A DNA stretch of 64,000 bases from Tubulanus polymorphus (lineage: Eukaryota > Animalia > Nemertea). Shown piece after piece: positions 2,367-24,831 of the stretch (positions are counted from its first letter, which is position 1; each line of letters starts with the position of its first letter). The notes beneath the pieces are model-generated. The model was given only the letters and a program-made list of their open reading frames with translations. It did no database searches and was not told where the DNA came from. The translations under genes were made by a program, and so were the position numbers. The stretch lies in contig NC_134032.1 of assembly GCF_964204645.1 (NCBI RefSeq), positions 3,248,175 to 3,312,174 of the forward strand, in the 5' to 3' direction.

Positions 2367-2514
2367 AGAGAATCCCACAATGATAAGAAAAAGTCCGAAA
2401 ATGTAACTTCGAGATAGTAGTTTATTTCAACGTTTCAACTATATCCTAATTGTCATCTTCAGGAATCGAAGTTACGTTTTCGGACTTTTTCTTTTCTTAT
2501 CATGTGGGATTCTC
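2367..2514. repeat. Fold-back inverted repeat enclosing a degenerate hammerhead-like motif (Penelope-type remnant)
   Basis: GAGAATCCCACA...AAAGTCCGAAAATGTAACTTCGA is mirrored at ~2466-2514; the loop reads CTGAAGA-stem-GAAAC on the minus strand (2428-2463). Confidence 0.5.
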
Positions 2515-2883
2515 TGTACATCCCGTCAACACGGATATAGTGTTCTATCAATCGTTTTCAGCATAAAATCGGGTAGATGTTAGATCCTATAACCGACTCG
2601 TCGCGCATGACTGTCTGGAATTAGAAAACTCTAGATAAATGACTAAAAAATCGGGATTCGAACTGGCAAACACGAGAGTGTAAGCGTTGCTAGCTTCCGG
2701 AATCACCAATTTTGTAACTACATGTAGCCTTACACTAAGCTACCGACGTATGTTAAGAAAGAAAAATTTTGAGTCCCAACTGCAAATAACAGTGTAACCC
2801 CGAGAAAGTCTTAAGAGAGGGCCCTTTTTATAAGTTTTTATGGAGCAGAGTTTAGTTCATGTATGTCTCCAACGACAGCCAAC

Positions 2884-2950
2884 GCCAGAGGTGGTTTCGA
2901 ACTAGGGACCTATTTGTTCCCAGTCCTCCATTCAACAAACTGAGCTAACT
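2884..2950 (-). mobile_element. tRNA-derived SINE head or tRNA pseudogene
   Basis: Minus strand TAGCTCAG (A box) and GTTCGAA (B box) at tRNA-like spacing; no clean cloverleaf. Confidence 0.4.
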
Positions 2951-3327
2951 GCACAGGACGATAAATGAAGGATATTTCGTACAATTTCACTTTAAGAAGT
3001 AGATCATCCATGAATTATTTCATCGAGGCAGGAAGAAGTTATTGTCACGGAATTGACCGGTTTAGCTGCTAATAATAGGCCTAATACGTCTCGCGATTAG
3101 TTACACAATAGGATGATTCATCTGATATTTCTGTGAGGAAAAGTTTTCAATTGAAAAAATGAGAATCAAATTACGATTACAATAACTTTAACAAATAGAT
3201 GAATAAAGACGTCGATAAAGCTAGTTTATGTCACTGTTAAGATCGAAGTCAAACCGCTTCGTTTTCATTAGGCGTTCGATTATACTTGCTCACATTGTTC
3301 GAGAGAAAAATCTGAATCCGAACGACG

Positions 3328-7239: not shown

Positions 7240-9022
7240 CCTGGTTGGTCTCGAGATAGTTTAGCTCTTCTAATTCTATAGCTGCTGGAATCGACTTCGT
7301 TCTAAAAAGATTGAGAAAAGAGAATGAAATTATTCGTATACGGAGAGATGTAATTTGTAGCTATCCGCAGATATGGGTGAGTCATGTAACACTGACGGTC
7401 AGCCGCGGGTTCAACGGGATTCGAACCCATTCGAGTCCAACCCCGCGTAGCACGGGCTCAATGGGATTCGACCCCACCTCATCTGGTTTGAGAGTCAAGC
7501 ATGTGTATTACCTCTGCGACTAATCTTTCTCATCAATTCCTTGCGATGTCAATTCAACACGTCCATTTTTTTGATACCGCTGTGTGATACCGCTTTATGG
7601 ACGCTTGACACAATCGAACCGGTGACAGTCAGCTCATTATCGTGAACTAACGAAACGCGAGCCGAATTGAGAGTGTTTAAAGAGACACTTTTATTATACG
7701 AAATAATTCACCAGGTTCTGAATACTGTCTAAAAAGGGTCTACGTACTCAACACCAGCGATGTAAACAAATTAGCGTAATTTTACGTTTCATTGAAACAC
7801 TGAACTCTCAAGTTGGTTTTTACTACAGACCAGGATTCGACAAATCACGATGTAGATCACACATAAATTAATCTGTGGAACTGAGTGAAATTAACCCCAG
7901 ACGAATGCGGAACTGGATTTAAAAGGCAAAATATAGCTGCACAGCAGCGATAACGGGTTTCTGCCTAATTGTTTCATATGTCGAACTGGGAAGCGTACGA
8001 AGATTTCATCGAAATAATTCTAGCCCATAACATATGACTATTGCCAAGAAGCGCAATCTGGGTCAACATTATGCTGGATATGTGGATATGATTTGTCAAA
8101 GCATCGAAGCAATACAGTCCAACTTGTTTATGTCTCAGATGGAGCGCGCGGGACAGGGCCGTCATTATACTGGTGACATCCAAATTACACCTTCACAGCG
8201 CAACGTCTTTCAGTGTGTAAACTCCATCGTACTCGGCATTAAAGGACAGTGAGGAATTGAATTTTAGCCACCTAAGCCCTTGGCTTGATTCGAGCAAAAG
8301 ACCTAACGAACCCGGCAGTTGACTAAATGCACACCTTACGCCCTGTTTGTCTCAAATATGAGTTACAACATGTGACTGAACTGCATGAATTAACAATTCA
8401 ACAATTTCAGTTAATCAATGATTTTATCAAGTTCGTCGAAATCGAAATGTTTTGCCTTTTAAATTCGAGTTAAGATTGTGCAGGAATGTACTCAAGACAA
8501 TGCGGGCAACAGTACAATATGCCGTATAGCCCCCCCCCCCGCCTATGATTAGAGATGTCGGCAGTTTAATATTAATATTTTTAGCGCCTGTTATGCCTAA
8601 TTCTAGTTACACAATGTGTTTGGTTTGAATCAATTGAATTATGTAAATTTCACGCAATAAATGATTATGACAATTATGAAAATGAATGAGTTTTTAATAA
8701 GCTCCAGGTTAACAATGTTTAGAATTCATTTATCGATTGGAAATGAGGAAGTAGCTTCAGTCGAAGCAGTCAGTTGTTTCATTTTTTTTGTGTTCAAATC
8801 GTTGGAAAGCTATGTTAGAGAATCCATTGAAACAAAAACCATCTGTAGAAAGAGCTTTAGAGATGAACAATATCGAGTTTTCGCTTGATATTTGTTATGT
8901 AAGAATTTGATTTTTTTTTCTATAAGGCTTATTCGGTGGAACTGGGATCAGTGAGGTGAATGTTTATCAAGCTCCAGAACGGAACATGCTGAGAACAATA
9001 GCCCAAAATTTTATTCAACGGC

Positions 9023-9143
9023 AGTAATTAGAAAAGTGGGGTTTCATACCAGAGGGCGAGAGGGCGAGACACCACTCATCACCACAAGTAATTTTTTTCC
9101 TAACACTCATTACCACAAGTAATTTTTTTTCCTAATAAATGGG
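9023..9143 (+). repeat. Left terminal inverted repeat
   Basis: Reverse complement of 24710-24831 apart from one substitution and a 1-nt T-run difference; runs into the polB start codon. Confidence 0.95.
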
Positions 9144-12100
9144 GGAGAATGAACACCAACTAGAAAACAATAATGTCAATAAAAATCAATATTATTGTCA
9201 ATATTGTAAAAAAAACATCGATACATCTCATAAAACACGACATGAAAAAACTGCAAATCATATAAAAAATGTAATAGATTTTGAAACTCCAGAAAATTCC
9301 AATGAAAGAAAAGAACGATTAGAAAATATGAATGTGGATGAAATAAAATGTGAAGTTTGTAATGAATTTATAGTAAAAAGGAATTATAATAGACATCTCG
9401 AATCACAAAAACACCACCAAAATTTGAGTAATAATGTTTTAGGAAAAGATTATTTTGATAATAAACCTCAAAAAGTAAAAGAATCAACTTCAAAAACTAA
9501 ATCCATTTCAAATAAACCTTACATGGAAAATGTTAGAAATTATATTGATTCACTAGAAATAAAAGATACAATTGAAATCTTAGAAACATTACATAGTAAA
9601 ATTGGTCCTGCAGCTATTATATTTAGATTTTTTAAAGGTACAACAATAGAAGATTATAGTAAATTTAATGAAATAATAGAAAAAATACTAGATTTGATAA
9701 CAGATGTTGAATATCCAAAAATTAGTATCTCTGGGAAAGTAAGTTTTATAAAGTCAGAAGAAAAAATGAATTATAATATTCAAACACACTCTGAAGAAAT
9801 AATTTCAAAAACACAAATAAAAGAGAAGTTAGAAAAAATATTTAATGAATTTAAACGTCATATTGAAGAAAGATATTTTGAGGGTTCTGGCTTAACATTG
9901 AATGAAATAATATATTTAGATTTAAATGTTTATAATACAAAAAGGAATAAAACATCAAAAAGTAATAAAATGTTTAAAAATGATTCAAACTTTACAACAG
10001 AAAAGGATATTAAAGCATCATCTTATATTAAATTACCATTTACAACAAAAGCAGTAATAAATGTTCAAAATGAAGATAATAAATGTTTTCTATGGTCAAT
10101 TATTAGTTGTTTACACCAAACAGAAGATACGACGCATAGTTTTAGAATAACAAATTACCGGAAATATGAAACATTATATAAAATTGATCAATATCCAGTA
10201 ACTATAAAAATGATTCCTAAAATAGAAAAAATTAATAATTTAAAAATAAATGTATTCGAATTAATGCAATTACCAAAGACAAAAGGTGAAAATATTAAAG
10301 ATTATACATTGGAAGCTTTATATTTAACAGAATATTATGATGATGAAAATGCTATAGATTTGTTATATTACAAAAAAGATGAAAATGAACATTATATGTG
10401 GTTAAAACAAATTGATTTATTCTTTAGAACAACAGAAAGTGATCATCATCGTAAAATTTATCTATGTAGAAAATGTTTATCTAAATTTATGACTGAGAAT
10501 ACATTATTAAAACATAAAGAATTATGTGATAATAAAGATTTTTGTAAATTAATAATGCCAACAGAAAAAGATTATGAATTGAAATTTCCTAATCATAAAT
10601 TTAAAAATATTGTTCCATTTGTAATTTATGGGGATTTTGAATCGTTGAATAAAGAATTAACTGATCAAGATAGAAAAGAAATATATAACAAAAAGCAATT
10701 ATTAAAATCAATGGATAAAGGAAGTGAATTAAATGAAGATATAATTCAAGACCCACCAATCATAAATACAATTAAAAAAGTTCATCAAAGAGCTGCTGCT
10801 TATGGAATTTATATAAAATCAAATTATCCTGAATTATATGAAAGTCAATATATTTCTTTTAGAGGTGAAAATGTAGTTAATGATTTTTGTGATAAAATTA
10901 TTGAATTAGAAAGTGATTTTGCAAAATTATTAAACAAAAATAAAAGAATAGTTATGACAAAAGAAGATGAAATTGATTTTAATTATGCAACTCATTGTTG
11001 TTATTGTGAAAAACGTTTTTATTCATTTGATAAAAGAGTTAGAGATCATGATCATTTGAATTCAAAATATCGTGGAGCTGCTCATGAAGATTGCAATTTA
11101 CAAGCTAAGAAAGTTAATTTCGTACCAATATTATTTCATAATTTATCAGGCTATGATACCCATCTATTTATAAAACAATTATCGGGAAAATTGGGTGCAA
11201 TTAATCAAGAAATAGAAGAATATAATGCTATGAATGGTGTAAATGTAAGAAAATATGATTTTAAACTATTAGCTAAAACATCTGAAAATTATATTTCATT
11301 TCAATTTGGTTGCATTAGATTTTTAGATTCTTATAGATTTCTAGCAAGTTCATTAGATAATTTATCAAAATCATTAGTTGATAATGATTTTGTTATAACT
11401 CGATATTATTATCCAAATGACCAAGATTTTAAATTACTGAGATATAAAGGCGCAATTCCTTATTCATTTTATAAAACACATGATGATTTTAATGTAACAG
11501 AATTATTAAAAGATCAATTTTATGATAAATTAAAAGAGGAGTATGTGAAAGACGAAGTGTTTAATAGAACATTAAATATTTGGAACCATTTTAAGATGAA
11601 AAATCATGGCGAATTAGTTGATTTATATTTAAAATCAGATGTTATGATATTAGCTGACATATTTGAAAAATTTAGAGAAGTTAATTTGAATCATTTTAAT
11701 GTTGATCCTTGTTATTGTTATTCTAGTCCTGGTTTAACCTGGCAATGTGGTTTAAAATATACAAATGTAGAATTAGATTTATTAAAAGAACCAGATATGG
11801 TTTTATTATTTGAAAAATCAATTAGAGGTGGAATTAGTGGTGTTATGGGAGATAGGTATTTTAAAGCAAATGATGAATATAAATTATTATATATTGACGC
11901 CAATAATTTATATGGTTGGGCAATGATGCAACCTCAACCATATAAAAATTTTATATTAACAGAAGTTGAAAATGGTGATAAAACTGATTGGGAAAACGCA
12001 ATTGCGAGTTTAAAAGATGAAGCACCAATTGGTTATTTCTTTGTAGTTGATTTAGAATATCCTGAAAATATAAAGTTTAAAACAAGAAACTTACCTTATT

Positions 12101-14203
12101 GCCCAGAACATTTAACTGTAGATGATAGTTATTTAAGTGAATACCAGAAGAAAATAAAACCGAAAGATCATGTTTTTACAGAAAAATTAATACTTACTCA
12201 AAATGATAAATACAATTATATTGTTCATTATAGAATGTTAAAATTTTATCTAAAACAAGGAATGAAATTAAAGAAAGTACATAGATATATTGAATTTAAT
12301 CAATCGAAGTGGTTAGAAAAATATATAGATTTCAATACTCAACAGAGAACCATATCAAAAACAGATTTTGAAAAAGATTTCTTCAAATTAATAAATAATA
12401 GTTTTTATGGTAAAACATGTGAAAATATTAGAAATAGAAATGATATTGAATTAGTGAATAATTCTGAAAGATTAAGACATTTACAATCAAGTCCTAGACA
12501 TTTAGGAAATAAAAGATTTGAAGATTATTTAACAGCAGTTAAATTAAAAAGAACATCATTAAAATTTAATAAACCTATATTTATAGGTTCAACTGTTTTG
12601 GAAATATCAAAATTATTGATGTATAATTCTTATTACAATGTTTTGCAGCCACTTTTTGGGGAAAAACATATAGAAATATTATATTTTGATTCTGTAACGG
12701 CTGACACCCCAATATTATTAAAATGTAATAATAAAATATTGGTAAGAAGAATTTCAGAAATAATTCCTAATCAAAATAAATCTTATATTTCATATGGTGA
12801 AAAAGAACTAATACAAATAAATGGTTTAATGGATGTTTGGACAAGAAATGGATGGAAAAAATTAAAGAATATTATTAGACATAAAACAAATAAGAAAATC
12901 TATAGAGTTAGAACTAAATTAGGATTTGTAGATGTTACTGAAGACCATAGTTTGATTAAACTAAATGGTGATGAAATAAAACCAACTGATATAAAAATTG
13001 GAGATGAATTATTACATAAAAGATTTTTCCCAAGAATGAATCATATGTCATTTGATGAAATAATTAATAATACTTATAATATAGAACCCGAAACATTGGA
13101 AGAAAAAGAATATTTTATCAAAGGATTTTTCATGGGTGATGGTTCAGCAGGTGTGTATAATTATGTTAGTGGAACTAAATATTGTTGGTATTTATGCAAT
13201 CAAGACTTAAAATTATTAGAAAGAATTACGAAATTCTGTGAAGAAGTTTATTCACATAAAACATTTAGAATCATGGATGTTATGAAATCATCAGCAGTTT
13301 ATAGAATACTTATAAATAATCCTAAAGATTTTGCTATAGAATATAATGATGAATTCTATATTCATGCAATAGTGAAAAGTAATACTTCGACAAAAGAAAA
13401 GATAGTTCCAGATTATGTATTGAATGCAAAAAAATAATTTAAGAAAATGGTTCTTCATTGGATTATATGCAGCAGATGGTTCAAAAAGTTTCAAAACAAT
13501 ATCTTTAGCTCAAAAAGGAAAAGTTGCTATATCAGGATTGAATATATTATGCACTTCATTAGGATTTAATATGAATATTGGATTGATTAAATCTAAACCA
13601 AATTGCTTTAATTTAAGCCATGTAGAAAATGAGTTAACTGAAGAAGTTAAAGATTTATTTGAAATATATAACCCAACGGATTATGTTTATGATTTATCAA
13701 CTGAAGATGGTACATTTAACTGTGGATTTCCATTAATAGCGGTCAATACTGACGCCTACATACTAAAAATCAAGACAAATGACATAACAAAAGACTTAAA
13801 AACATTAAAACATCATTTTGATTTTAGCAATTATCCTAAAGATCATGAATTGTTTAGCAATGATAATAAAAAGATTCCTGGTAAATTTAAAGATGAATTA
13901 GGGGGTGATGAAATGATTGAATTTGTTGGGATAAGAAGTAAAATGTATAGTTACAGAACAAAAGATCATGAAGCTAAAAAGTTAAAAGGAATAACAAAAC
14001 ATGTGGTTGATAAACATATAGAATTTCAAGATTATATAAAGTGTTTATATAAATCAATTGTAATGAAACACAAAATGAATTGTTTAAGATCAGAAGATCA
14101 TGAGATGTACATTAATGAAGTTGAAAAAACTAGTTTAAATCCATTTGATGATAAAAGGCATATTTTAGATGATGGTATAAAAACATTACCTTATGGTTAT
14201 TAA
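9139..14203 (+). CDS. Protein-primed family B DNA polymerase with N-terminal zinc fingers, endonuclease VII-like insert and an intein; +1 frameshift at A7 (13428-13434)
   Basis: YGDFES (ExoI), FHNLSGYD (ExoII), YIDANNLYG (motif A), KLINNSFYGK (motif B), YFD//TDA (motif C split by intein), KLKGI; CCYC...RDHDH...GAAHEDCN EndoVII-like motif. ORF 13424-14203 supplies the C-terminus. Confidence 0.95.
12691..13747 (+). mobile_element. Intein with LAGLIDADG homing endonuclease in PolB motif C
   Basis: Starts SVTADTPIL, block B VDVTEDHSL, endonuclease motifs GFFMGDGS and GLYAADGS, block F VYDLSTEDGTF, ends AVN followed by +1 Thr; excision restores YFD-TDA. Confidence 0.93.
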
Positions 14204-15513
14204 AATGGATCTATATCATCAAACTCGAAATCACTATTGGCTTCTTCATTTTCATTTAATTGTTCAGGTTCTTCTTCCATTCCATTTTTCTCATTTAAAT
14301 AAAGTTCTATCTTGTTCCACATTTCATCTCGCTCTCTTTGTTTCTTTTTGTTTGTTAATTCATCAAATGGAATTATAATATCTAGGTTTAAATAATTTAC
14401 AATCTTATTTAAAAAGAATTCATAATTTATTGAATCTGTTATTCTATTTTCCAAATGATACATTAATATTTGTTTAAATATTTTTTTTATATTTTCCATA
14501 TCTTCTTCTGTTAATTTAGGTTTTTCATAATAATCGTTAAATAATAAATATAAATACATTTTCTTTTGTTTTGTGTTAAATGTTGGTGGAATAATTGTTT
14601 TTATAATATCTTTTTTAGTTATTTCACCATTTTTATTTTCTATTATTTTCATTTTTTCAAGCCATTGCATATATTCTGGTGTATGATCTTCTATAGAAAA
14701 TATTTTAAAAATTTCATCTAGATAATTTAATTTTGGTTCTATGAGAAAATTTCTAGTTTTTTCTTCACCCCATAAATTCTTTTGCCATCCACATTCAACA
14801 CAAAATAACACAGTACCTTCTTGCCTTAAGGTCGCATAAATACATTGTGGGCATTTTTGTTTATAATTTACTAGTAATAGATCTTCATTAAGCTCTTGGT
14901 ATTTTCTTACGTTTTCTTTATGTTTTATTGTTCTATTATGTAGATTTGAATTACTTGTTGTAATAATCAATTTACAATATTTACAATAATATGTTTTTCT
15001 TGTTAATTCATTATATTGTTTTTCTAACTTTTCAACTGTTTCTTCATTATCTGGTAACGTTTTCTCATATTTTATTTTTTCTAATAAATTATTTTTTCTT
15101 GCATTGAATTCAGTTTCAAATTTATTAGAAATTTTATCTTTATGTACTTTACGAAATTGATGATTCTCCCAATCTTCTATATTTTCAGGGTTATATTTTA
15201 TTCGACAAGGCTCACAGAAATAATCGTTTATATTATCCTTATCATAGAATAAGAAAGGTCTTTTCCAAATAATTTCAGGTTCAACTTCAACAGAATTATT
15301 ATTACTTTCGTAACTGTCAACATTATCTATTAAGTTATTATTTTTACACTTCTCTAAATGTTTTTTGAAATAATTTCTAGAGAATGTTTTATTACAATTT
15401 GGACAGTTTATTTTAGGGGGTTTATAATTTTCATCATGTTTTTTCATATGTCGAGCCATATTACTTTTTCTTAGAAGTTCACCACAAATTTCGCATGCTA
15501 TCTTCTCATCCAT
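14200..15513 (-). CDS. Multi-zinc-finger protein with a C-terminal poxvirus VLTF3 (A2)-like late transcription factor domain
   Basis: Four Cx2C...H fingers, then zinc ribbon CPQC-x13-CVECG and IFKQIL...SINYEFFLNKI...DEMWNKI, matching by eye the VLTF3 pattern (vaccinia A2 IFKHLV...[11 protein letters not shown], recalled from memory). Confidence 0.75.
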   Translation of the reverse strand: MDEKIACEICGELLRKSNMARHMKKHDENYKPPKINCPNCNKTFSRNYFKKHLEKCKNNNLIDNVDSYESNNNSVEVEPEIIWKRPFLFYDKDNINDYFCEPCRIKYNPENIEDWENHQFRKVHKDKISNKFETEFNARKNNLLEKIKYEKTLPDNEETVEKLEKQYNELTRKTYYCKYCKLIITTSNSNLHNRTIKHKENVRKYQELNEDLLLVNYKQKCPQCIYATLRQEGTVLFCVECGWQKNLWGEEKTRNFLIEPKLNYLDEIFKIFSIEDHTPEYMQWLEKMKIIENKNGEITKKDIIKTIIPPTFNTKQKKMYLYLLFNDYYEKPKLTEEDMENIKKIFKQILMYHLENRITDSINYEFFLNKIVNYLNLDIIIPFDELTNKKKQRERDEMWNKIELYLNEKNGMEEEPEQLNENEEANSDFEFDDIDPF

Positions 15514-15581
15514 TTATTAAGGAAAAATTTTATTAAAATTAATTTTTAGTGATGAGCGGTAATTTTTTTATGTTATAAATA

Positions 15582-16331
15582 ATGGTAGAATTAAAAGAAT
15601 ACAGAATATTTGTTGATTCTAGAAAACTTACAAATTATAAATCACATAATTTACTAATACAATTAGATAGAGAATTCAAGAATTGTGTAGATTTAAAATT
15701 AGTAAATATAAGTTTATGTAACTCATTTTATAATATAACAGCTAAAAGTCTTGAACATTTATTTTTTTCAATCAAGAGTAAGGATAAATGGAATTATCTA
15801 TTTTTAAAACCAGGATTATATAATTTAAATACATTAGCGCAGGAAATTAATAAAAAAGCTCGGATCAAATTAGGTAGTGATGCTGAATTTAACATTAGAT
15901 TTTTGAAAAGTGATAATTCTAATAAAATGAAGATAAGGTTAGCTCATAATGAAAAATATCAATTTTCAGTTAAAAAACCTATAGCTAAACTATTAGGAAT
16001 TACACCAGATAAATATTATTCAAATGTTGATACTACACCAAATATAATACCTTTTACACACTTTTATATTTATTGCAATTTAATCGATCCTACAAAAACA
16101 TTCGAAGCAACTAAAGATATAACTTGTAATTCTGGTTTACTAATTTTACCAATAAAGAATGTTAAACAATTTGGAACTCAAATAAATTATAATTTAGCTG
16201 AATGTGATTTCAAACCTTGTATTCCTCAATTTAATAATTTTAAATTAGAAATAAGAAATCATAATGGATACTTAATTGATTTGAATAACTTTCCTGTAAT
16301 TTATGAATTAGTTATGAGATGTAAAGAGTAA
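15582..16331 (+). CDS. Minor capsid (penton-like) protein
   Basis: IFVDSR at the start, NSFYNI, PGLY, C-terminal NGYLIDLNNFP: pattern and size typical of Polinton/virophage minor capsid proteins. Confidence 0.75.
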   Translation: MVELKEYRIFVDSRKLTNYKSHNLLIQLDREFKNCVDLKLVNISLCNSFYNITAKSLEHLFFSIKSKDKWNYLFLKPGLYNLNTLAQEINKKARIKLGSDAEFNIRFLKSDNSNKMKIRLAHNEKYQFSVKKPIAKLLGITPDKYYSNVDTTPNIIPFTHFYIYCNLIDPTKTFEATKDITCNSGLLILPIKNVKQFGTQINYNLAECDFKPCIPQFNNFKLEIRNHNGYLIDLNNFPVIYELVMRCKE

Positions 16332-16347
16332 TTTTTCACCTATATAA

Positions 16348-16671
16348 ATGAATATAACTGTTGGACCGAGTATATGTTTTGGGTTTGATTTTAAACGTGA
16401 GAAAGATTATATCAAAAATATTGCATTTTCTAATGAAACAACATTTGAGTATGAAACAACAATAGATAAAGAAACTTTAAATGTAGAAAAGATTACTAAT
16501 TTAATTAGAGAATCTTTAAGATTTTATGAATTAGATGAAGATTTTATAATCGATGATATTAAGAAAATAATAATTGAAATATATACAAATGAAACTAGTA
16601 ATAAAATAAATGTTGAATTAATCATAAATAAGTTAACTAAATATTTTGAAGATAGTAATTTTTTTGATTAA
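16348..16671 (+). CDS. Hypothetical acidic viral protein
   Basis: 107-aa ORF preceded by the element's TAAATG motif, packed between neighbours. Confidence 0.65.
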   Translation: MNITVGPSICFGFDFKREKDYIKNIAFSNETTFEYETTIDKETLNVEKITNLIRESLRFYELDEDFIIDDIKKIIIEIYTNETSNKINVELIINKLTKYFEDSNFFD

Positions 16672-16674
16672 TAA

Positions 16675-16896
16675 ATGAGTGATAATAAGTGGATAATAAC
16701 TGGATTATATAATGGCGCATTACTATCAGTTGGAACGGTTGGTTATTCAATGGTATTAAAAAAAGTATTCAAAATGGGAAGTGTTAATGTTGATAGATTT
16801 GATATAAATGATATTTTAAAGTTAACATTAGCAGTTACTTTATCTAATTTAACTATTGATTATTTGGAAAAACAAAAATATATTCCTCCCATATAA
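16675..16896 (+). CDS. Small hydrophobic viral protein
   Basis: 73 aa, two hydrophobic segments, TAAATG start. Confidence 0.7.
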   Translation: MSDNKWIITGLYNGALLSVGTVGYSMVLKKVFKMGSVNVDRFDINDILKLTLAVTLSNLTIDYLEKQKYIPPI

Positions 16897-16921
16897 ATGT
16901 GTAATTTTTTTTATTAAATAA

Positions 16922-17344
16922 ATGGCTTCTGCAATTATAACTATTATAGGATCGGCAATTGTTAACGCTTTAGCATTTACTGGTGGTGGTTATTTATTTA
17001 AACATATTGATAAAAATAGTTCATTAGGAGAACAAAGAAGACATAACTTAGCGTTAGAGAAATACAATAAAGCTGCAGAAGAATATAGAGAAAAGAGGCA
17101 AAACTATATGGATTACATCAATAAAGAATTATATGATCAGAAGATTTCACATAGAGATTTTCAATCAGTTGATGATGCAATGAGTTTATATAACGCAGTA
17201 ACAAATAAAGAAAAATTACATCTATACAAACCTAAATTTTCAGATTATTATACCCCAAGTAAAGAACAACAGAAATATGAAATAATATGGATTTTAGGTG
17301 GAACAGTTATTGTTATATTTGTTGCTTATAAGTTTACTAATTAG
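16922..17344 (+). CDS. Viral membrane/coiled-coil protein
   Basis: Hydrophobic N-terminus (AIVNALAFTG), RRHNLALE coiled region, C-terminal TM; TAAATG start. Confidence 0.75.
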   Translation: MASAIITIIGSAIVNALAFTGGGYLFKHIDKNSSLGEQRRHNLALEKYNKAAEEYREKRQNYMDYINKELYDQKISHRDFQSVDDAMSLYNAVTNKEKLHLYKPKFSDYYTPSKEQQKYEIIWILGGTVIVIFVAYKFTN

Positions 17345-17363
17345 TAATTTTTTTTCTAAATAA

Positions 17364-17798
17364 ATGGAAGATAAAGTTGATAGTATTGATATTATTCCTC
17401 ATGATATAAATAAAACTAAATTAAAAACATATTTAGAAAAACAAATATTAGAATTTGAAAGTGACTTAAAGATAAAAAAGAAAAAATATTTAAAAAGTAA
17501 AATTATATATTATTTGATTATAAGTGGTTCGGTTACAATTAGTTCTGTAATAACATTTTTAGCAATATTCAGTCCATTAACACCTTTAGCTATATCAATT
17601 GGTGTATTAGGATTAAGTTCAAGTGTTTTAACTGGTATAAGTTCAAAATTTAATATAAAAAGTAATAAAGAAAAAATTAAAACTAATATAAAAGAAATAA
17701 ATAAATTAAAGAACACACTAGATTATATCATAAGTTTAAATGGTCATATAACAGTTGAAGAACAAGATAAATTATTAAAAGAATTAATAAATTATTAA
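17364..17798 (+). CDS. Viral two-TM protein
   Basis: 144 aa, central hydrophobic hairpin flanked by coiled segments; TAAATG start. Confidence 0.7.
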   Translation: MEDKVDSIDIIPHDINKTKLKTYLEKQILEFESDLKIKKKKYLKSKIIYYLIISGSVTISSVITFLAIFSPLTPLAISIGVLGLSSSVLTGISSKFNIKSNKEKIKTNIKEINKLKNTLDYIISLNGHITVEEQDKLLKELINY

Positions 17799-17815
17799 TT
17801 TTTTTAATTATATAA

Positions 17816-19204
17816 ATGGTAGATAGTTTTCCAAAAGCTTTCCAATATAATAAATCAATTAAATATAATATTCCGGCAATAGATTTTAATAAAGATATTA
17901 CATATAGCAATGAAGTTTTAAATTCATTAATTGATTTATATATTTATGTTACTGAAACTAATAATTTTAATGCAAAGATGGAAAATATATTTCATGTATA
18001 TTTAATTAATTTTAAAAAATTGAAAGATGAAAAACAATGGTTATTAAAATCTAATATGAAGTATTGGCAGAATCAATTAAATTTTGCTGTTTATTGTGCA
18101 ACAACAGGATGTGGAATTAGTTGGAATGATCATTTGAATAATTCTAAATATAAATTAATTCAAAGTTTATTTAGATTTCATACATACTTTCAAATCAGAA
18201 TAATATTAAATGAATTAGAGTGCGCTTTACCAGGATCTAGGTATTTTAAAGAATTAGATAATAATATTAATTTATCTAAGTTTTATAAGATTTGTAATGA
18301 ATTTAATATAGATATAAATAATTCTGATTTTAGAACAAAAATTGGAACAATAAGATCACTTCCTTGCCCTAAAAAGATTGCAGAATATTGTGCACTTCCC
18401 ATACCATCTAATAGTTTTTATAATATCTATAATAATAAATTAGGTTATGGTAAAATAGAAACAAAGGATTTAGAAACATTAAATTTCAATAAATTACCGA
18501 AATTTTATGATAATTTAAAACAAGAAAACAATAATGGTTGGGTATATTTTATTTTAGAAAATAGTGAAGGTTTTACTAAATCAGGTATAGAAAGAATAAA
18601 TCAATCTATTAGAACTTATTTGATTTGTATTCTAGGATCACAAGTTGAAACAAGATCACCGATAATTGGAAATTTGAATACATCATTCGATACACAAAAA
18701 CAATTTAAAGTATTATTTGAAGATTCCATACATAATGATAAAAATAGATCGATTCCAGAAAACATTATAAGATATCAAAATTATTTAGATAAATCTCATG
18801 TAAGACTTAATTATTGTATAGGCCCTAATCTATTAATTATTTCTAATGATTTAGTATTAAAGATGGGAAACATAATTGGTTATAATAATCTAATTAAAAC
18901 TGCAACAATAAATAATTCATTTGGGTTAAATGATATAAATAAAAAGATTATTACTGCTCCAAAATTAATGGAAGGTGAAAAAAATAAAAAACACATTCAA
19001 TCAACAGAAACTAAAACTAATAATATTAAATTAAATAATGATTCTAAAATAAAAGATTACAATACATCAGAAAATAATAGAACTGATAAAATTCAACATG
19101 ATATAATTAAAACTGATAATGATAATAAATCACATGAAAATACTAAATTAGCTATAACTTGTATAGGAATTGTAATCGGAGGAATATTATATTTTAAATT
19201 TTAA
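17816..19204 (+). CDS. Hypothetical viral protein with C-terminal TM anchor
   Basis: 462-aa ORF with WQNQLNFAVYCATTGCGIS motif; TAAATG start. Confidence 0.8.
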   Translation: MVDSFPKAFQYNKSIKYNIPAIDFNKDITYSNEVLNSLIDLYIYVTETNNFNAKMENIFHVYLINFKKLKDEKQWLLKSNMKYWQNQLNFAVYCATTGCGISWNDHLNNSKYKLIQSLFRFHTYFQIRIILNELECALPGSRYFKELDNNINLSKFYKICNEFNIDINNSDFRTKIGTIRSLPCPKKIAEYCALPIPSNSFYNIYNNKLGYGKIETKDLETLNFNKLPKFYDNLKQENNNGWVYFILENSEGFTKSGIERINQSIRTYLICILGSQVETRSPIIGNLNTSFDTQKQFKVLFEDSIHNDKNRSIPENIIRYQNYLDKSHVRLNYCIGPNLLIISNDLVLKMGNIIGYNNLIKTATINNSFGLNDINKKIITAPKLMEGEKNKKHIQSTETKTNNIKLNNDSKIKDYNTSENNRTDKIQHDIIKTDNDNKSHENTKLAITCIGIVIGGILYFKF

Positions 19205-19220
19205 TTTTTTCATTATGTAA

Positions 19221-20664
19221 ATGGATGTAGAAGGTGGAGAAGATATTGGAATGGATGACATGGGAAATGATAATGAAGGATATATTGATAATGATTATAA
19301 TAATGCAGGCGCTAATATTGATAATGATGAATCAGCATATAATTCTAATTTAACTACACCTCAATATATTGACAAAGCACGTTCAAAGATAAGTATTGAA
19401 AATGAAGTACCAGAAATAACAGAAAAAGAATACAATTATAATGAAATTATTCATGAATTTAAACCAATATTAAAAAAATCTGGTTTCAATATAACAGATA
19501 ACGGTATGGATAAATTAGCAAAAGATTTGAAATATTTAAATGGTGATTATTATTGGAAATTGAAAGGCGACTATTATTTTAAGATTTCAAATCTTAAAAG
19601 TAGCAGTAATGATAAAATAATAACACAATCAACTTCTAATTTATTAGAACAATCTAGAATTAAGAAAATCAATAATGATGTTATAACTGATGTTACAAAA
19701 AAAGAAAGAACTGTTAATTTTAAAGAATTTAAACAAAGAAATGCTAAATTTTTTGATATAATTAATGCAAATTTAAGACAAAAAAAAAATTCCTAAAGAA
19801 GTTATTAATTCCAAAACTAGTAAACCTAATTCAAGCGAAGTTCAAACTGAAAAACTTTTACCAAATGGATTACTTGATGCAACAGATCAACAATTAGAAG
19901 ATTTAAATATATTTTCTGATAAAACAATTAGAGAAATTATTAGTATAAGAAATGAAACTGATAAAATTGCACATAATAAAAGTATAAGAGATATTAAAAT
20001 TAACAATTTAGAAAAAGAATTAACTGATAAAAATAAAGAAATAGAACAATTAAAGTCTGATTTAGATCGTCAAGTAATTGATGAAATAGAATATAGGCAA
20101 AAAGAATCACGTTTAGAAAAAGAAATAGATGATTTAAAATATAACAAAGAATTACAAAAAGAAGAAATAGATACATTGTTAAAATCATATGATTATAATA
20201 TTAATAGATTAAAAGTTATTTTTAAAGATTTGTTGATTAAACCAAATTCTGAAATATCATTAAAAGACAGAATAAGATTATTATTTAAATTAGAAGGAAT
20301 AACAATTCTTTCAATTCTAACAGCTGTAACTATGTTATTTACAACAATTGGTTTAGCAATATCAAATGCTTTGAAATCTACTTCTACTCCCACTCCCAAT
20401 AAACCAGATAAACCTCCAGGTAATAATTCTATACAAGATAAAGTTAAGGATGGTTTAAAGAAATTAGCAAAATATTTATGGGAACTATCAAAGAAATCTG
20501 CTGCAGCATTGCCAGGAGTTATTGCTTCAATTGTTGGTTTTATATTGAAATCTGCTGGGAATATTCTTAACTTTGCTGCTGAACATATTATTTTATTTTT
20601 AATCACAGTTGTAAGTGCTATTATTTTTGGGTTAGTAAATATGATATCAAAAAATATCAAGTAA
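19221..20664 (+). CDS. Coiled-coil/multi-TM viral protein, +1 frameshift at A10 (19780-19789)
   Basis: The frame of ORF 20176-20664 is stop-free back to ~19790; removing one A joins it to ORF 19221-19796. No separate TAAATG before 20176. Confidence 0.8.
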
Positions 20665-20710
20665 ACCATGATATCAAAAAATATCAAGTAAACCATGATA
20701 TCAAAAAATA
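20641..20710. repeat. 27-bp tandem duplication (~2.5 copies) over a stop codon
   Basis: ATGATATCAAAAAATATCAAGTAAACC repeated. Confidence 0.9.
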
Positions 20711-20735
20711 AATAATTAATTTTTTTGTTAAATAA

Positions 20736-21851
20736 ATGAGTGGGAGTTATATAAGTCCTTCGAAGAATCATAGAATATCTAATGCTATTAAAGCAGAAAG
20801 ATCACATCATATAATTACTCATAACCCTTCAAATATTAATCCCGATGAAACTTTATATGTGAGGATTCCTCGATTAACACAAAATACTTTTTATGTTCCA
20901 AATAGTATTTATTTATCAGCCGATATAAAAGTAACTGGTCATGATAATAATTATGTTGTCGATAATGTTGGAAGATATTTGATTAAAAAGTTAACAATAA
21001 AGATTGGTCCAGAAACAGTTTTCTCATTAGATGATTATAATTTATTTATGTATAATAAAGATTTATGGTTAACTAAAGAAAATAGAAATAATATGATATT
21101 TCAGGGTATTCAATCGGAAAACCATAATAAATTAAGATCTGAAGCCAATAACGCAGTAGTAAATAATAGCGTAGATAATTTGATTAAAAAGATTTATGGA
21201 AGTAAATATAAAATTCCATTAGACTTTGAATTGATAAATAATAATGCACCTTTATATAAATACGCAATTCAAGAAGATATTATATTTGAGATAACATTTG
21301 CTCCTGTAAATGAAATTGTATTATCTAGCGTTGTTAAAGATATGGGTTATAAATTATCGAATATATGTTTAGAATATAACACAGTAACTAATGAAAATAT
21401 TGCTAGCACAATTCAAACTCAATACAATCAAGGATTTTCATTATTATATGATTATATTGATAAATTTAAAACTGTAACTATTAATGCAAATGATGAAATA
21501 ATTAATGAGAATATTAACTTTCCTAGAAGATCTATTAAAGGTATATTAATGTTTTTTACCATTGCAACATATTCTAATGGCGCAATAAATGTTGATAATT
21601 ATTATAATCCTGAAATAACAAAAGTAGAAATAACTATCGAAGGAATAGCAAATAAAATATTTTGTCAAGGAATGAGAATGATTGATCAATGGCCAGAAAT
21701 TAGAAAACATTTTATGAATGAAAAAGTAAAATCATCTGAAAATTGTAATATTAATCAAATTGATTATTATACCGGCAATAAATATGCATTATGGTTAGAT
21801 TTTAGAACAACAGAGGATAATTCATTACATGGTTCTGGAATATATGGATGA
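20736..21851 (+). CDS. Major capsid protein (double jelly-roll), probably C-terminally truncated
   Basis: ITHNPSNI...LYVRIP, VDNVGRYLIKKL, YYNPEITKVEITIEG, LWLDFRT...LHGSG resemble invertebrate Polinton MCPs; stops three codons after LHGSG. Confidence 0.75.
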   Translation: MSGSYISPSKNHRISNAIKAERSHHIITHNPSNINPDETLYVRIPRLTQNTFYVPNSIYLSADIKVTGHDNNYVVDNVGRYLIKKLTIKIGPETVFSLDDYNLFMYNKDLWLTKENRNNMIFQGIQSENHNKLRSEANNAVVNNSVDNLIKKIYGSKYKIPLDFELINNNAPLYKYAIQEDIIFEITFAPVNEIVLSSVVKDMGYKLSNICLEYNTVTNENIASTIQTQYNQGFSLLYDYIDKFKTVTINANDEIINENINFPRRSIKGILMFFTIATYSNGAINVDNYYNPEITKVEITIEGIANKIFCQGMRMIDQWPEIRKHFMNEKVKSSENCNINQIDYYTGNKYALWLDFRTTEDNSLHGSGIYG

Positions 21852-21921
21852 GTTGAAAAATATTAAAAGATCAAAATTACTATTTAGATTACAACACCCA
21901 TTTAAATATGAATTTATTTAA
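21841..21921 (+). pseudogene. Orphan 3' gene fragment, possibly the packaging ATPase C-terminus
   Basis: Reads YMDELKNIKRSKLLFRLQHPFKYEFI* with no TAAATG start; resembles from memory the tail of Polinton A32-like ATPases. Confidence 0.4.
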
Positions 21922-21929
21922 ATTCAATT

Positions 21930-22152
21930 AGTTTGTTAATCTAGTTGAATTCTAGTTATTGGTAGTTGTAACAAAAATCAAATAGATTTAACAATATTTT
22001 AACTAGCTTGTTAATCTATTTTAATTCTAATTACATTCTAGTTGAATTCTAGTTGTTAGTAGTTGAAACAAAAATCAACTAGATTTAACAATATTTCAAC
22101 TAGCTTGTTAATCTAGTTGAATTCTAGTTACATTCTAGTTAAATTCTAGTTG
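21930..22152. repeat. CTAGTT/AACTAG-rich intergenic repeat, ~100-bp unit duplicated
   Basis: Many CTAGTTGAATTCTAGTT units in direct and inverted arrangement. Confidence 0.8.
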
Positions 22153-22185
22153 CAACATCACACAATTAATTTTTTTGTTATATAA

Positions 22186-22791
22186 ATGGGAGGTGAAAAG
22201 AAAATAAAATCTAAAAATGGTGATGTTCCAATTGAAAAAACTTTAGATGATTTAGGAATAACAGAAACAAAATTAACTCCAGATGATGGTGCTTTAAATA
22301 ATGTTACAACAAATAATAATTATGAATATTATCTTTATTGTAAACATCAATTAGAAATATTAATAGCATCTGGAAAATGTAAAAATTTTGTCGGTAAAAA
22401 TTTAACTTATAATGAATTAGACACAATGAAATCAGATGAAATTATTAGATTATTTAAGATTTATGAAGCCGCGAGAACAGCTAGAATTAATGACGCGATA
22501 TCAGAAAATGTAGTAAAAGGTTATAGTAAATTATGTAATTATATACTACCAATTGAAAATGAAAATAGATTATATTCTGATTTAAAAAATGATTATTTAG
22601 TTATGACTGAATTAAATAAATGGATTGGATATTTATCATTTCAATTAGGTGGATTTATGACATTATTATCAACTGGAGTTATAACATTTTCAAATATTGA
22701 AAGTAAAGATATTTCTATAATAAATGAGCGAGGTGAAAGAAGTGAAGGAATTAACTGTGAAGAAAAAACCGAGAACTCAGAAACAAATTGA
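22186..22791 (+). CDS. Hypothetical viral protein
   Basis: 201 aa, TAAATG start, hydrophobic segment near the C-terminus. Confidence 0.75.
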   Translation: MGGEKKIKSKNGDVPIEKTLDDLGITETKLTPDDGALNNVTTNNNYEYYLYCKHQLEILIASGKCKNFVGKNLTYNELDTMKSDEIIRLFKIYEAARTARINDAISENVVKGYSKLCNYILPIENENRLYSDLKNDYLVMTELNKWIGYLSFQLGGFMTLLSTGVITFSNIESKDISIINERGERSEGINCEEKTENSETN

Positions 22792-23092
22792 ATGGTCTCG
22801 GCAATTAGGAATTAAATCACAAGAATATAAAAAAGCTGTAAAAGAAAAAATAAGTAATAAAAATGTTAATAAAAATGGTGAAAATATTGTTATTTCTACT
22901 CCTTCTGATAATAGAATATTTGATAAATATTTATATTTTACAGTTGGATTTGTAATTGTATTCATTTTGATTGGGTGTAATTGGTATAAGAAATCAAATA
23001 AAATTCATGATATTAGTAATTCTGAACCAACTGCTATCAAAAATGAAAGTACTTCTGAAATTCCAAAATTGATAATAAAAAAAATGGATTAA
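22724..23092 (+). CDS. Basic single-TM viral protein
   Basis: 122 aa, KKPRTQKQIEW basic N-terminus, TM YLYFTVGFVIVFILIG; TAAATG start inside the previous gene. Confidence 0.7.
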   Translation: MSEVKEVKELTVKKKPRTQKQIEWSRQLGIKSQEYKKAVKEKISNKNVNKNGENIVISTPSDNRIFDKYLYFTVGFVIVFILIGCNWYKKSNKIHDISNSEPTAIKNESTSEIPKLIIKKMD

Positions 23093-23455
23093 TATTTTAG
23101 AAAAAAAGCAAAAAAAAAAATAATTGAATATCTCACTACTTTTGTCTATCACTGTGGAGCAATTAAATTGTCCAGATAAGTCATTTCGGATTCTAGATAT
23201 TCATTATTTTATTAATTTATTTTGTTTTTATTTGAATATTTGAATTTGAATTTGTTAATCAATTAACATAGTAATTGATTACTAATTTGATTAAAAATTA
23301 TATCATAATGAAGTTAAAAATACATAATTCATTTATCAGTTTTCATTCTTACATTCTTTTCATTCGGAATAATCTATAATTTCAAATTTCACATATTTTT
23401 TTAGCACCAACAACATTTACTTAGGTGTTTTAGCTAAGTATATAAGGTAATTCAT

Positions 23456-23720
23456 TCAACCACTGGAGTAGCTCTGGCCAGCAGAGGCATTTTGAAAATG
23501 CACCTTCGTCCACTCTCCGGGTTTCTCCTTCGGTTTCGAATTTCGAGGTTGGTAGAAATTACATTAGGCGCCTTTAATATAATGTGATTTCTACCAATCA
23601 TTGAAGGAGATCCCGGTTGACGTGGGTCGCCGGGGGTGTAAGTAGAAATGACGGGGGATAAGCGTCCCGTGGCGCCTTTCAATAATGGGATGCTTATCCC
23701 CTGAAAACTCTGTAGGTTGA
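23456..23720 (+). ncRNA. Predicted structured non-coding RNA of the element
   Basis: Closing stem 23456-69/23707-20, long interrupted hairpin 23499-23640, 19-bp hairpin 23652-23703; ~12 G-U pairs on + strand; shared loop GGCGCCTTT(C)AATA. Confidence 0.65.
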
Positions 23721-24075
23721 GGATAGGGCAATTTTGCTAAAACTTACCGTAAAAACATTGAAATATTCCTTTTAATCACGAGAGAATGATGACTATCCTC
23801 CTGTCGTCACGGCCGAGCTAATTTAAATAAACCTCGTTTTCAGCAACTAATGAAAACGCAGTAATTCAATACCAGCTAACTGGTTTGTGTGTGTTGTATG
23901 TACTGCGTGCTTATTATATAACAACAACGTTGTGCAACACCTGTTTGATTGATCAATATTCAAATAAAGCACTCTCTTATAATAATATGTAACAGATGTA
24001 CTGTATGATTATAGTTGTTTATAAAACGACTAAGGTCATTTTGGATTCTAGATATTCATTATTTTTATTTCTTAT

Positions 24076-24402
24076 TTAATCAACAATTTCTAAATCATGA
24101 TGACCGTCTTCATTTTTCCCATGATATATTATTTTAAATCCTACTAAATCTTTCAATTCCTCCATACTCAATGAAACCCATTTATCGGGTAAAAACACTT
24201 TAAATTCTCGTGATGTACTAACATTACAGTAGCTTAAATTAGCTGATTCTTTCTCTCCATATTTAGTTTTTATCTTTTCTAATTTCAATATTTTATGTTC
24301 AATTTCTTTTGTAACATCAACTAACTTTTTTATTTCAAATTGTTTTTTTGCTGGTTTTATTCTGTTATTTATTGTTGCTAAGAATGCTTTTCTATCTCCC
24401 AT
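24076..24402 (-). CDS. Hypothetical basic viral protein
   Basis: 108 aa, preceded by a copy of the TIR motif CTCATCACCACAAGTAAT...CCTAATAAATG. Confidence 0.7.
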   Translation of the reverse strand: MGDRKAFLATINNRIKPAKKQFEIKKLVDVTKEIEHKILKLEKIKTKYGEKESANLSYCNVSTSREFKVFLPDKWVSLSMEELKDLVGFKIIYHGKNEDGHHDLEIVD

Positions 24403-24510
24403 TTATTAGGAAAACAAATTACTTGTGGTGATGAGTAATTACTTCCCTTGTATATAACAAGCTCACAGCATCTATTTATCCGGGTACAGTTGACACACGC
24501 GCAGCTGTTG

Positions 24511-24714
24511 TTACGCGCACTCACTGTTTATGTATGTCACAATTTTACTACGTAATATTTCTAAAATTTCAATTGCATCTTTTATTTCTAATGAATCAAT
24601 ATAATTTCTAACATTTTCCATGTAAGGTTTATCGATGTATTTTTTACAATATGGGCAATAATATTGATTTTCATTAACATCACTTTTTTCTGTTTGGAAC
24701 TCACTGTCTCCCAT
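24511..24714 (-). CDS. Short paralogue of the pPolB N-terminus
   Basis: NQYYCPYCKKYID-KPYMENVRNYIDSLEIKD matches PolB aa 1-28 joined to aa ~126-155. Confidence 0.65.
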   Translation of the reverse strand: MGDSEFQTEKSDVNENQYYCPYCKKYIDKPYMENVRNYIDSLEIKDAIEILEILRSKIVTYINSECA

Positions 24715-24831
24715 TTATTAGGAAAAAAAAATTACTTGTGGTGATGAGTGTTAGGAAAAAAATTACTTGTGGTGATGAGTGGTGTCTCGCCCTCTCGCCC
24801 TCTGGTATGAAACCCCACTTTTCTAATTACT
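24710..24831 (-). repeat. Right terminal inverted repeat
   Basis: Mirror of 9023-9143, followed by TSD AACGGC. Confidence 0.95.

Follow-up and report, generated by a model that had tools for sequence, protein, structure and literature searches.

A described parallel to the element reported here is mavirus, in which all genes sit behind the late promoter of CroV (available part of PMC6723459). For poxviruses, the Polinton-like viruses AHEV_PLV1/2, CBEV_PLV1 and Ca_PLV1, which carry terminal repeats and one of which is integrated in an insect chromosome, have been proposed as hyperparasites (PMC11296320, available in part); the text of that paper mentions none of VLTF, promoter or TAAAT. In vaccinia, late promoters carry TAAAT(G) at the start codon, preceded by a T conserved at −10 (PMC11980589, available in part), and the vaccinia polymerase core reads the TAAA initiator directly (PMC12917281). 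Vaccinia A2, or VLTF3, is the one family member shown to be needed for late transcription by a viral multisubunit polymerase, according to the title of a reference in PMC11980589. VLTF3 has been reported from stony-coral polintoviruses (PMC11131425, section 8) and MELD viruses (PMC8502044, Fig. 6), and also from Zephyrvirus VC123/VC126 (10.64898/2026.06.19.733378) and mriyaviruses (PMC11253617), each of these sources being available in part. TAAAT is not mentioned in PMC8502044, nor VLTF in one supplement file of PMC11131425, and the texts of the three sources other than PMC8502044 nowhere use the word promoter. The initial annotation of the locus was right that VLTF3 is not a core Polinton gene, yet a polintovirus subgroup that carries it is thus already in print, and a VLTF3 gene taken alone, without its promoters, would for this reason be a modest finding. 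No paper was found on a finger fusion or on pox-type promoters in such elements.

The window analysed is a stretch of 64,000 nucleotides from the nemertean Tubulanus polymorphus. Polinton/Maverick elements are defined by terminal inverted repeats (TIRs) with AG...CT ends and a 6-bp target duplication, all of which were found at 9023..24831. The features of this copy are as follows.

9023..24831, no strand assigned: Polinton/Maverick copy of 15,809 bp with AG...CT ends, 108-bp TIRs (99%) and the 6-bp target duplication AACGGC
9139..14203, plus strand: protein-primed DNA polymerase B (pPolB), with two N-terminal fingers, an intein-like insert and a TAAATG start
14200..15513, minus strand: zinc-finger/VLTF3 fusion gene, 437 aa, intact, no internal stop
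15582..16331, plus strand: probable minor capsid protein, judged by its length, its place in the element and a weak match to DUF5901
16348..20664, plus strand: conserved gene block (107, 73, 140, SLATT-like 144 and 462 aa, and a 191+295-aa pair), the real starts all TAAATG
20736..21851, plus strand: probable major capsid protein, with a weak Capsid_N match (E 0.082) and 75-77% identity to relatives of 414-415 aa
22186..24402, both strands: three further conserved genes (201 and 122 aa on plus, 108 aa on minus), all with TAAATG starts

An empty site was recovered in one contig of sequencing run X1, which links position 9016 to 24832. The family comprises tens of copies, of which 9023..24831 is a deleted one. 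Its pPolB gene (DNA_pol_B_2, 66.7 bits) is broken into two ORFs near 13424-13437; the 191+295-aa pair is a single 485-aa ORF in the relative L003; and the probable major capsid gene is truncated by an internal deletion near 21838, beyond which the A32 ATPase gene continues with its tail, with sequencing reads departing from the copy at 21838 on both sides. Apart from this tail, the ATPase and the rve integrase are missing from the copy. Both are found in relatives L003-L005, which were identified via the capsid, and the integrase there is of the rve-chromo type. Across the elements, proteins are 43-90% identical and gene order varies. No cysteine protease was matched in the copy or among the scanned L003/L004 ORFs, nor were other vaccinia late factors matched among the element ORFs. 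A rhodopsin-family GPCR and retroelement ORFs lie beside the element and point to an animal host.

The product of 14200..15513 was confirmed to belong to the VLTF3/A2 family; it is complete and bears four additional zinc fingers, which are conserved. It is laid out from N- to C-terminus as follows.

15436..15495, minus strand: finger 1, C2H2, aa 7-26; zf-C2H2 matched in two stretches with 27.2 bits (cut-off 25.2)
15346..15405, minus strand: finger 2, C2HC, aa 37-56; Sgf11 and zf-C2HC_2 matches below cut-off
15142..15216, minus strand: finger 3, C-x2-C-x14-H-x5-H, aa 100-124
14920..14985, minus strand: finger 4, U1/matrin type, aa 177-198; zf-U1 30.2 bits, cut-off 22
14791..14853, minus strand: VLTF3 C4 zinc ribbon, C-x2-C-x13-C-x2-C, aa 221-241; a beta-ribbon in the model
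14284..14751, minus strand: VLTF3 helical domain of seven helices, aa ~255-410, from profile, hhalign, model and fold matches
14203..14283, minus strand: acidic tail, 12 D/E and no K/R in 27 aa

The ORF, four fingers, ribbon, quoted motifs and downstream Trp that the initial annotation had listed are all present, the motifs at aa 255, 334 and 397 and the Trp at aa 399. The segment aa ~220-410, for which it had proposed VLTF3 homology, does resemble the family. In a comparison of the isolated domain with Pfam Pox_VLTF3 (cut-off 25), aa 200-412 reached 27.4 bits at E 3.3e-6, and the shorter segment aa 292-412 reached 28.5 bits; hhalign to entomopoxvirus VLTF3 gave E 3.7e-9. A phmmer search over 1.84 billion representatives returned four matches, the fourth being P0005, a protein with both Pox_VLTF3 and the A2L ribbon (E 5e-5); tblastn matched two giant-virus VLTF3 genes, and ESM-Atlas feature matches to Pox_VLTF3 clusters reached 0.92. 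In a 20-sequence VLTF3 alignment, the four ribbon Cys (20/20), one Phe and the C-terminal Trp were invariant, and the motif block aligned with named entomopoxvirus VLTF-3 proteins. The similarity is a distant one, because the full-length 437-aa protein had no VLTF3 profile match at E ≤ 1 and the isolated ribbon no match to A2L_zn_ribbon; identity to sampled VLTF3s outside its own family is 15-25%. Neither the full protein nor the domain gave any match in word-index protein searches, and an alignment-based search returned six proteins, a set skewed to entomopoxviruses since the query contained P0005.

A structure model built from an alignment of known VLTF3s (pLDDT 86.5) had the complete domain, and its Foldseek search bore out the claim at the level of the fold, with cowpox VLTF3 matched at E 1.9e-6 and TM 0.61. 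Of ten matches at E ≤ 0.001, six are named as VLTF3 or late factor, two are otherwise named and the rest are nameless; pox and non-pox VLTF3s rank close together. A model made from the single sequence reached a pLDDT of 43, too poor for use, and had no significant fold match. Against the PDB there was no significant match by sequence or Foldseek, so that these searches yielded no A2 relative with a solved structure; absence from the VIA-align lists carries no weight either way.

The fusion is retained in three diverged homologue clusters (P0001, which is the 437-aa protein, P0002 and P0003) at 37-50% identity, whereby all 16 finger ligands stay Cys or His. Finger 1 is conserved in P0002 and P0003, finger 2 is C2H2 in P0003, and the P0003 counterpart of finger 3 scores 26.6 bits with zf-C2H2_jaz (cut-off 22.6). 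A P0002/P0007-type fusion sits in L003 with the same gene block, integrase and A32 ATPase. Krueppel-type tandem C2H2 arrays that read DNA consist of regular fingers on short canonical linkers; the fingers of the fusion are of mixed C2H2, C2HC and U1 types with spacers of 10, 43 and 52 aa. Similar fingers were also seen on pPolB of the element itself (19.6 bits) and in one L004 ORF (21.4 bits). With such fingers on other proteins of the family, those of the fusion may act as a general tether. The initial annotation had suggested that they target the polymerase to the element's promoters, a role that is not favoured, given the non-tandem layout, the U1/matrin type of finger 4 and the like fingers on pPolB and the L004 ORF.

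With a GC of 23.8% and GC3 of 15%, the fusion gene resembles the element's other genes (12-13%) and not a host-side MFS gene (62%); recent capture is disfavoured by this match in composition. Descent of the element's VLTF3 from a poxvirus is not clearly indicated by sequence or model comparisons. A profile of the fusion family scored entomopoxvirus proteins at 22-48 bits, values possibly inflated by shared AT bias, and giant-virus proteins at −2 to 34 bits, so that the ranges overlap. In the VLTF3 tree the fusion family forms its own clade (83/87) on long branches; the tree is unrooted and has three groups, entomopox and Megaviricetes-like rows being the only others and chordopox, asfar and irido sequences being absent, so it cannot show sisterhood. 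Pattern-based scans of viral_contigs (MCP, alignment A1, pPolB tail and ATPase alignment) found no free relative, a result that by the nature of the method weighs neither way; two distant giant-virus loci were the sole matches of one scan.

The exact string TAAATG was found at 12 of 13 gene starts in the element and at 15/15 and 7/7 in two relatives, a total of 34/35 that is not independent, since the relatives were found through their capsids; it occurs at 40 of 675 other sense ATGs. These starts span the VLTF3, polymerase and capsid genes and are mostly preceded by a T-run, T frequency being 69-94% at −13 to −7 upstream of TAAAT. The start of the fusion gene is one of them.

15511..15533, minus strand: pox-late-type start of the VLTF3 gene, comprising T-run, spacer and TAAATG; matrix rank 8 of 31,572 positions

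Trained on L003/L004 only, the matrix gave its 14 highest ranks, among 31,572 positions of the window, to 12 of the gene starts, to a TAAAT lying 3 nt ahead of the 13th start and to the pPolB start as repeated at the right end. The minor capsid gene, head-to-head with the VLTF3 gene, has TAAAT 3 nt upstream of its ATG. Starts created by breaks or contig ends carried TAAATG in 0/4 cases. Controls, all drawn from viruses and host-side ORFs, gave 7/14 in an entomopoxvirus stretch, 1/14 in two mimivirus-like giant-virus contigs and 0/4 in host-side ORFs. AATAAA is contained in 20 of the 35 starts. The motif is not merely the poly(A) signal or stop of an upstream gene, because genes without an upstream gene on the same strand also carry it (exact TAAATG in 7/8); two head-to-head ATGs in L004 are just 19 bp apart. 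Judged by sequence, the single promoter class of the element has the vaccinia late-promoter layout, TAAAT(G) at the start codon with T around −10.

Two other signals were looked at. The early-terminator signal TTTTTNT was seen 13 times in coding strands against 32.8 expected; the controls were likewise low (TNTTTTT 0.57, TTTTT 0.55), so the depletion is nonspecific. An 8-mer occurs both in the TIRs and upstream of the VLTF3 gene, with one site outside the terminal repeats, near chance by a rough estimate.

From these promoters we infer a pox-type helper, and the idea of a helper polymerase, put forward in the initial annotation, gains support from pox-late-type starts on nearly all genes, evidence it did not cite. 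By analogy with mavirus, we give an even chance to the element being a provirophage that depends on such a helper and carries its own late factor; the fusion protein would then likely serve the element as a late initiation factor of its own, with RNA polymerase supplied by the helper. Having no RNA polymerase of its own and one promoter class only, the element would be silent in the chromosome. During pox-type infection, element DNA in the cytoplasmic factory would be transcribed by the helper polymerase, and helper late machinery would first produce the element's VLTF3, whose gene bears the same promoter. This VLTF3 would then replace helper A2 in initiation complexes. As TFIIB suggests by analogy, the ribbon would contact the polymerase and the helical domain the promoter region, and the fingers would keep the protein bound to nucleic acid of the element or to partner proteins. 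Late transcription would shift in the element's favour, with a loss to the helper as a by-product.

A bolder form, which we offer tentatively and hold to be possible at best, takes this animal Polinton family as an endogenous virophage of an undescribed poxvirus, the fusion swapping into the helper late complex and redirecting the polymerase in the manner of a sigma swap, with the tens of chromosomal copies as a possible inducible antiviral defence. Poxvirus late transcription initiates inside the A-run, giving 5' poly(A) leaders; a pox-type helper thus predicts such leaders on element RNAs and a pox-type virus in the host. One pox-late-like promoter class is found on replication, capsid and regulatory genes alike, beside the element's own copy of a late factor. 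For one family, this gives a testable answer on animal Polinton transcription and on autonomy versus helper dependence, and the fusion would be a natural divergent variant of A2 for the poorly resolved initiation step of poxvirus late transcription.

The fold permits a helper-independent account, doubtful in our view, in which VLTF3 is a TFIIB-like adaptor for host RNA polymerase II at T-run and TAAATG initiators in the nucleus and the fingers read DNA or chromatin. Among solved structures, the fold of ribbon and helical domain is best matched by chains of TFIIB (Z 6.3 and 6.1, rmsd 4.1-4.4, 92-94 residues), but a Z of ~6 is within the tool's stated noise and cyclins tie with TFIIB, so the likeness is weak. 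The acidic tail might be an activation region, and tens of integrated copies require nuclear access. The overlap of initiator and ATG, however, gives a Pol II leader no space. In eukaryotes a T at −3 makes for a poor start context, unfavourable here unless the RNA starts in the A-run. The VLTF3 gene shares its promoter with all others, so nothing would start the cascade, and no TBP-like ORF was seen among the element ORFs.

The initial annotation had also raised a dominant-negative inhibitor of the helper. As a decoy, the fusion would tie up late-factor partners or polymerase of the helper unproductively and damp its late genes, in defence of host or element. Its divergence from all sampled VLTF3s and big extra N-terminal part would suit this role, and integrated virophages do serve as defence (PMC6723459, available in part), but ribbon and helical domain are complete with the invariant residues kept, and a plain inhibitor would silence the element's own late-type promoters too, which makes the proposal distinctly improbable. 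It is very unlikely that the helper came from another cytoplasmic Nucleocytoviricota lineage with a TAAAT-like late initiator, for example asfar- or egovirus-like: VLTF3 is a shared gene of the phylum, and descent of the element's copy from poxviruses is not clear-cut, but the full layout, with T around −10 and TAAAT at the ATG, is that described for vaccinia, and the two mimivirus-like contigs lacked it. Least credible is a relic, in which promoters and VLTF3 date from an ancestral pox-like tie and the motif of what is now a transposon serves translation or 3'-end formation in a packed genome; the broken genes of this copy, the AATAAA content and the failure to find a helper speak for it, but an unused promoter would decay, and the motif is retained at almost all starts across the diverged relatives, despite differing gene order and at head-to-head starts.

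Compared with poxvirus VLTF-3/vaccinia A2 (PF04947 Pox_VLTF3 and PF08792 A2L_zn_ribbon) and its Nucleocytoviricota orthologues, the preferred candidate, a late factor working with a pox-type helper, has the same C4 ribbon followed by a helical domain and shares the invariant Cys, Phe and Trp. Unlike pox VLTF-3, it comes from an integrated element of 16 kb that lacks RNA polymerase. Entomopoxvirus VLTF3s are 226-228 aa long with the ribbon at the N-terminus, whereas the element family has 210-330 aa with four fingers before the ribbon; two giant-virus VLTF3s have a ~150-aa extension there that, unlike the element's, is finger-free. The VLTF3-bearing polintoviruses and Polinton-like viruses, compared by description only, are likewise small, Preplasmiviricota-sized elements with a SLATT-like gene nearby in the gene keys, and the available descriptions mention neither a finger fusion nor a promoter. 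The Polinton-like viruses linked to entomopoxviruses measure about 12 kb and have a cysteine protease and no rve integrase, whereas the element family has an rve-chromo integrase and VLTF3. Like mavirus with CroV, as far as the available description goes, the family combines pPolB and an rve integrase with residence in a host genome and a helper-type late promoter on all or, in the element, nearly all genes. Helper dependence is shown for mavirus and suggested by the promoters for the element, which differs from mavirus in residing in an animal, in a gene set of Polinton type, in the pox-type motif and in a late factor of its own.

The open reading frame that the initial annotation had read as a VLTF3/A2-like late transcription factor fused to four zinc fingers is real and intact. 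It lies within a Polinton, and the features of both are as follows.

Layout of the element and of the fusion protein
9023-24831: Polinton element, AT-rich (24% GC), bounded by 108-bp TIRs and flanked by a 6-bp target duplication
14200-15513, minus strand: fusion gene, 437 aa
aa 7-26: finger 1, Cys/His
aa 37-56: finger 2, Cys/His
aa 100-124: finger 3, Cys/His
aa 177-198: finger 4, Cys/His, U1/matrin-type
aa 221-241: ribbon, C-x2-C-x13-C-x2-C
after the ribbon, up to about aa 410: helical domain
C-terminal to the helical domain: acidic tail

A search of the full-length protein against Pfam Pox_VLTF3 gave no match; the C-terminal half scored 27.4 and 28.5 bits against the curated cut-off of 25. 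Four matches were returned by phmmer from 1.84 billion representatives. Two of these, P0002 and P0003, have the same architecture as the fusion protein (50% and 39% identity, respectively), and P0005 carries Pox_VLTF3 and A2L_zn_ribbon domains and shares 62% identity with a protein named as VLTF-3 in Betaentomopoxvirus amoorei. The remaining match, P0004 (281 aa), consists of the C-terminal VLTF3 block only and has no Pfam VLTF3 match. Profile-profile comparison with five entomopoxvirus VLTF3s gave a probability of 96% (E 3.7e-9, 133 columns), two mimivirus-like VLTF3 genes were matched by tblastn, and ESM-Atlas features indicated Pox_VLTF3 clusters (0.92). A structure model built from, and leaning on, a 20-sequence alignment (pLDDT 86.5) matched cowpox VLTF3 (E 1.9e-6, TM 0.61) as well as VLTF3s across the phylum; a single-sequence model gave no significant match. 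The domain is complete and the invariant VLTF3 residues are kept. Pfam, profile-profile and fold matches thus supply the profile and structural similarity to VLTF3 on which the proposed identity turned, and that identity is upheld; the wider interpretation given by the initial annotation has partial support. The closest solved folds to the model are TFIIB and cyclins (Z about 6), a likeness that is suggestive only. It bears on the main rival to the reading developed below, in which a TFIIB-like VLTF3 would recruit host Pol II.

The fingers form no tandem DNA-reading array. Finger 3 of P0003 is JAZ-type, and the U1/matrin and JAZ classes bind RNA or protein. Fingers resembling fingers 3 and 4 were also seen at the N terminus of pPolB (window 9196-9414) and in a 408-aa ORF (2461-3687) of L004, a related element on a metagenome contig; judged by sequence likeness, the finger module is common to several element proteins.

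With the family profile, entomopoxvirus VLTF3s scored 22-48 bits (6 sequences) and giant-virus VLTF3s -2 to 34 bits (12 sequences). A 22-row tree, omitting the near-identical loci L013-L015, L022 and L024 and the split L023, placed the three fusion proteins in their own long-branched clade (support 83/87) and named no donor. These sequence comparisons are compatible with a poxvirus source. GC at the third codon position is 15% in the VLTF3 gene, matching the element (12-13%) and not a host-side gene (62%), so the gene appears to be a long-standing resident.

A repeat finder recovered a 30-mer common to the upstream regions of several element genes. Of the 13 genes counted in the window element, 12 have TAAATG overlapping the start codon; in the 13th, TAAAT stands three bases upstream of its ATG. 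TAAATG is likewise present at the start in 15/15 and 7/7 genes of the relatives L003 and L004, and at 40 of 675 other sense ATGs of the same genes. These counts cover 13 of 18, 15 of 18 and 7 of 10 ATG ORFs, respectively, with 7 nested or antisense ORFs left out unscored and L005 omitted as a near-copy of L004; internal starts created by breaks or contig ends, outside the gene count, have the motif in 0/4. Because genes were chosen, by homology and length, after the motif was known, more weight is given to a blind test, whereby a matrix trained on L003 and L004 alone was scored over 31,572 window positions. The 14 top-ranked positions were 12 gene starts in the window element, the upstream TAAAT in the remaining gene and the duplicated pPolB start. 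T predominates at -13 to -7 and sets true starts apart from 37 other TAAATG sites (p 1e-6). The upstream gene's stop supplies the TAA in one case only, and the motif also occurs at starts with no same-strand gene upstream. Counting against a promoter reading, AATAAA is also spelled at 20/35 starts, and the counts come from three related elements. The controls, which included no VLTF3-less AT-rich Polinton, were an entomopoxvirus stretch (7/14, with weaker T-runs), giant-virus contigs (1/14) and host-side ORFs (0/4). The vaccinia late promoter is described in PMC11980589 as a TAAAT motif to which a G is usually added at the start codon, preceded at a distance of ten bases by a conserved T; according to PMC12917281, TAAA is read directly by the vaccinia polymerase core in the intermediate complex. 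Promoter-like units were also noted twice per TIR and once before a 108-aa gene, and at the right end (24395-24831) the beginning of the pPolB gene occurs again, promoter included.

The element encodes pPolB and, probably, capsid proteins, along with conserved ORFs that form a block. A capsid query against metagenome contigs found three relatives, L003-L005 (75-77%). L003 has homologues of 11 window ORFs (tblastn), an rve-chromo integrase, an A32 ATPase, a deoxynucleoside kinase and the initial 143 codons of a P0002/P0007-type fusion gene (98.6% to the homologue P0007). Its kinase gene (10340-10981; dNK 110 bits) has a TAAATG start and lies head-to-head with the finger-VLTF3 gene; an HNH-like ORF in L004 also has a TAAATG start. 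The window copy has two split genes, and a deletion near 21838 has cost it the integrase along with most of the ATPase; at that point raw reads of run X6 diverge from the copy on both sides. Behind 21838-21840, 570 X6 reads continue unlike the window copy and 147 enter from other sequence; at 21838-22160 the deletion fuses a capsid gene to the ATPase tail, followed by 97-bp repeats. X6 depth is about 250-265 over the VLTF3 gene, about equal over pPolB, and 4-6 in the right flank, and the element family is therefore present in tens of copies. Over parts of the capsid block (16376-21834) depth reaches about three times that of pPolB and VLTF3; this block may be common to more subfamilies or to deleted derivatives without this VLTF3 allele. 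One contig of run X1 holds an empty site. In pPolB, an intein-like insert (12682-13750) with a LAGLIDADG-like part directly follows the YxD motif and scores 26.9 bits against Intein_splicing, below the cut-off of 35.8; the gene is split within the insert. A second-copy pPolB fragment (92% identical) lies at 63827-64000 on the minus strand, and host DNA holds a nested, MITE-like palindromic repeat (46068-46779) and a long tandem array of 20-bp units (49266-50800).

VLTF3 is already known in polintoviruses: it is reported in stony-coral polintoviruses (PMC11131425, citing Krupovic and Koonin 2016) and in gene keys of MELD viruses (PMC8502044) and PLVs (10.64898/2026.06.19.733378), although the mriyavirus paper still treats it as diagnostic of Nucleocytoviricota (PMC11253617). 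Poxvirus-associated PLVs from occlusion bodies are described in PMC11296320 with VLTF and promoters unmentioned, and passages of 10.64898/2026.10.13.758929 and 10.1101/2024.03.23.586382 hold nothing further on promoters. A literature search outside subscription papers and closed supplements turned up neither a VLTF3 fused to fingers nor a Polinton described with TAAATG promoters, and sequence look-ups returned no look-alike. The weight of the finding comes mostly from an own late factor together with element-wide pox-type promoters.

A single promoter class spans the polymerase, capsid, integrase, ATPase and VLTF3 genes. As the element has neither an early promoter class nor an RNA polymerase, its expression would need an outside trigger. 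We infer the functional steps as follows: the onset of late phase in a pox-type helper virus would lead to production of the element's VLTF3 fusion, which would then compete with the helper's A2. A decoy acting as pure inhibitor fits less well than an active factor, since the VLTF3 domain is complete with its invariant residues and such an inhibitor would also silence the element's own genes. Given the single promoter class, the lack of an own polymerase and the mavirus precedent, the element is likely a provirophage of a pox-type virus, with the fusion protein as its putative own late factor. In that precedent (PMC6723459), the late promoter of the helper, CroV, stands on all mavirus genes.
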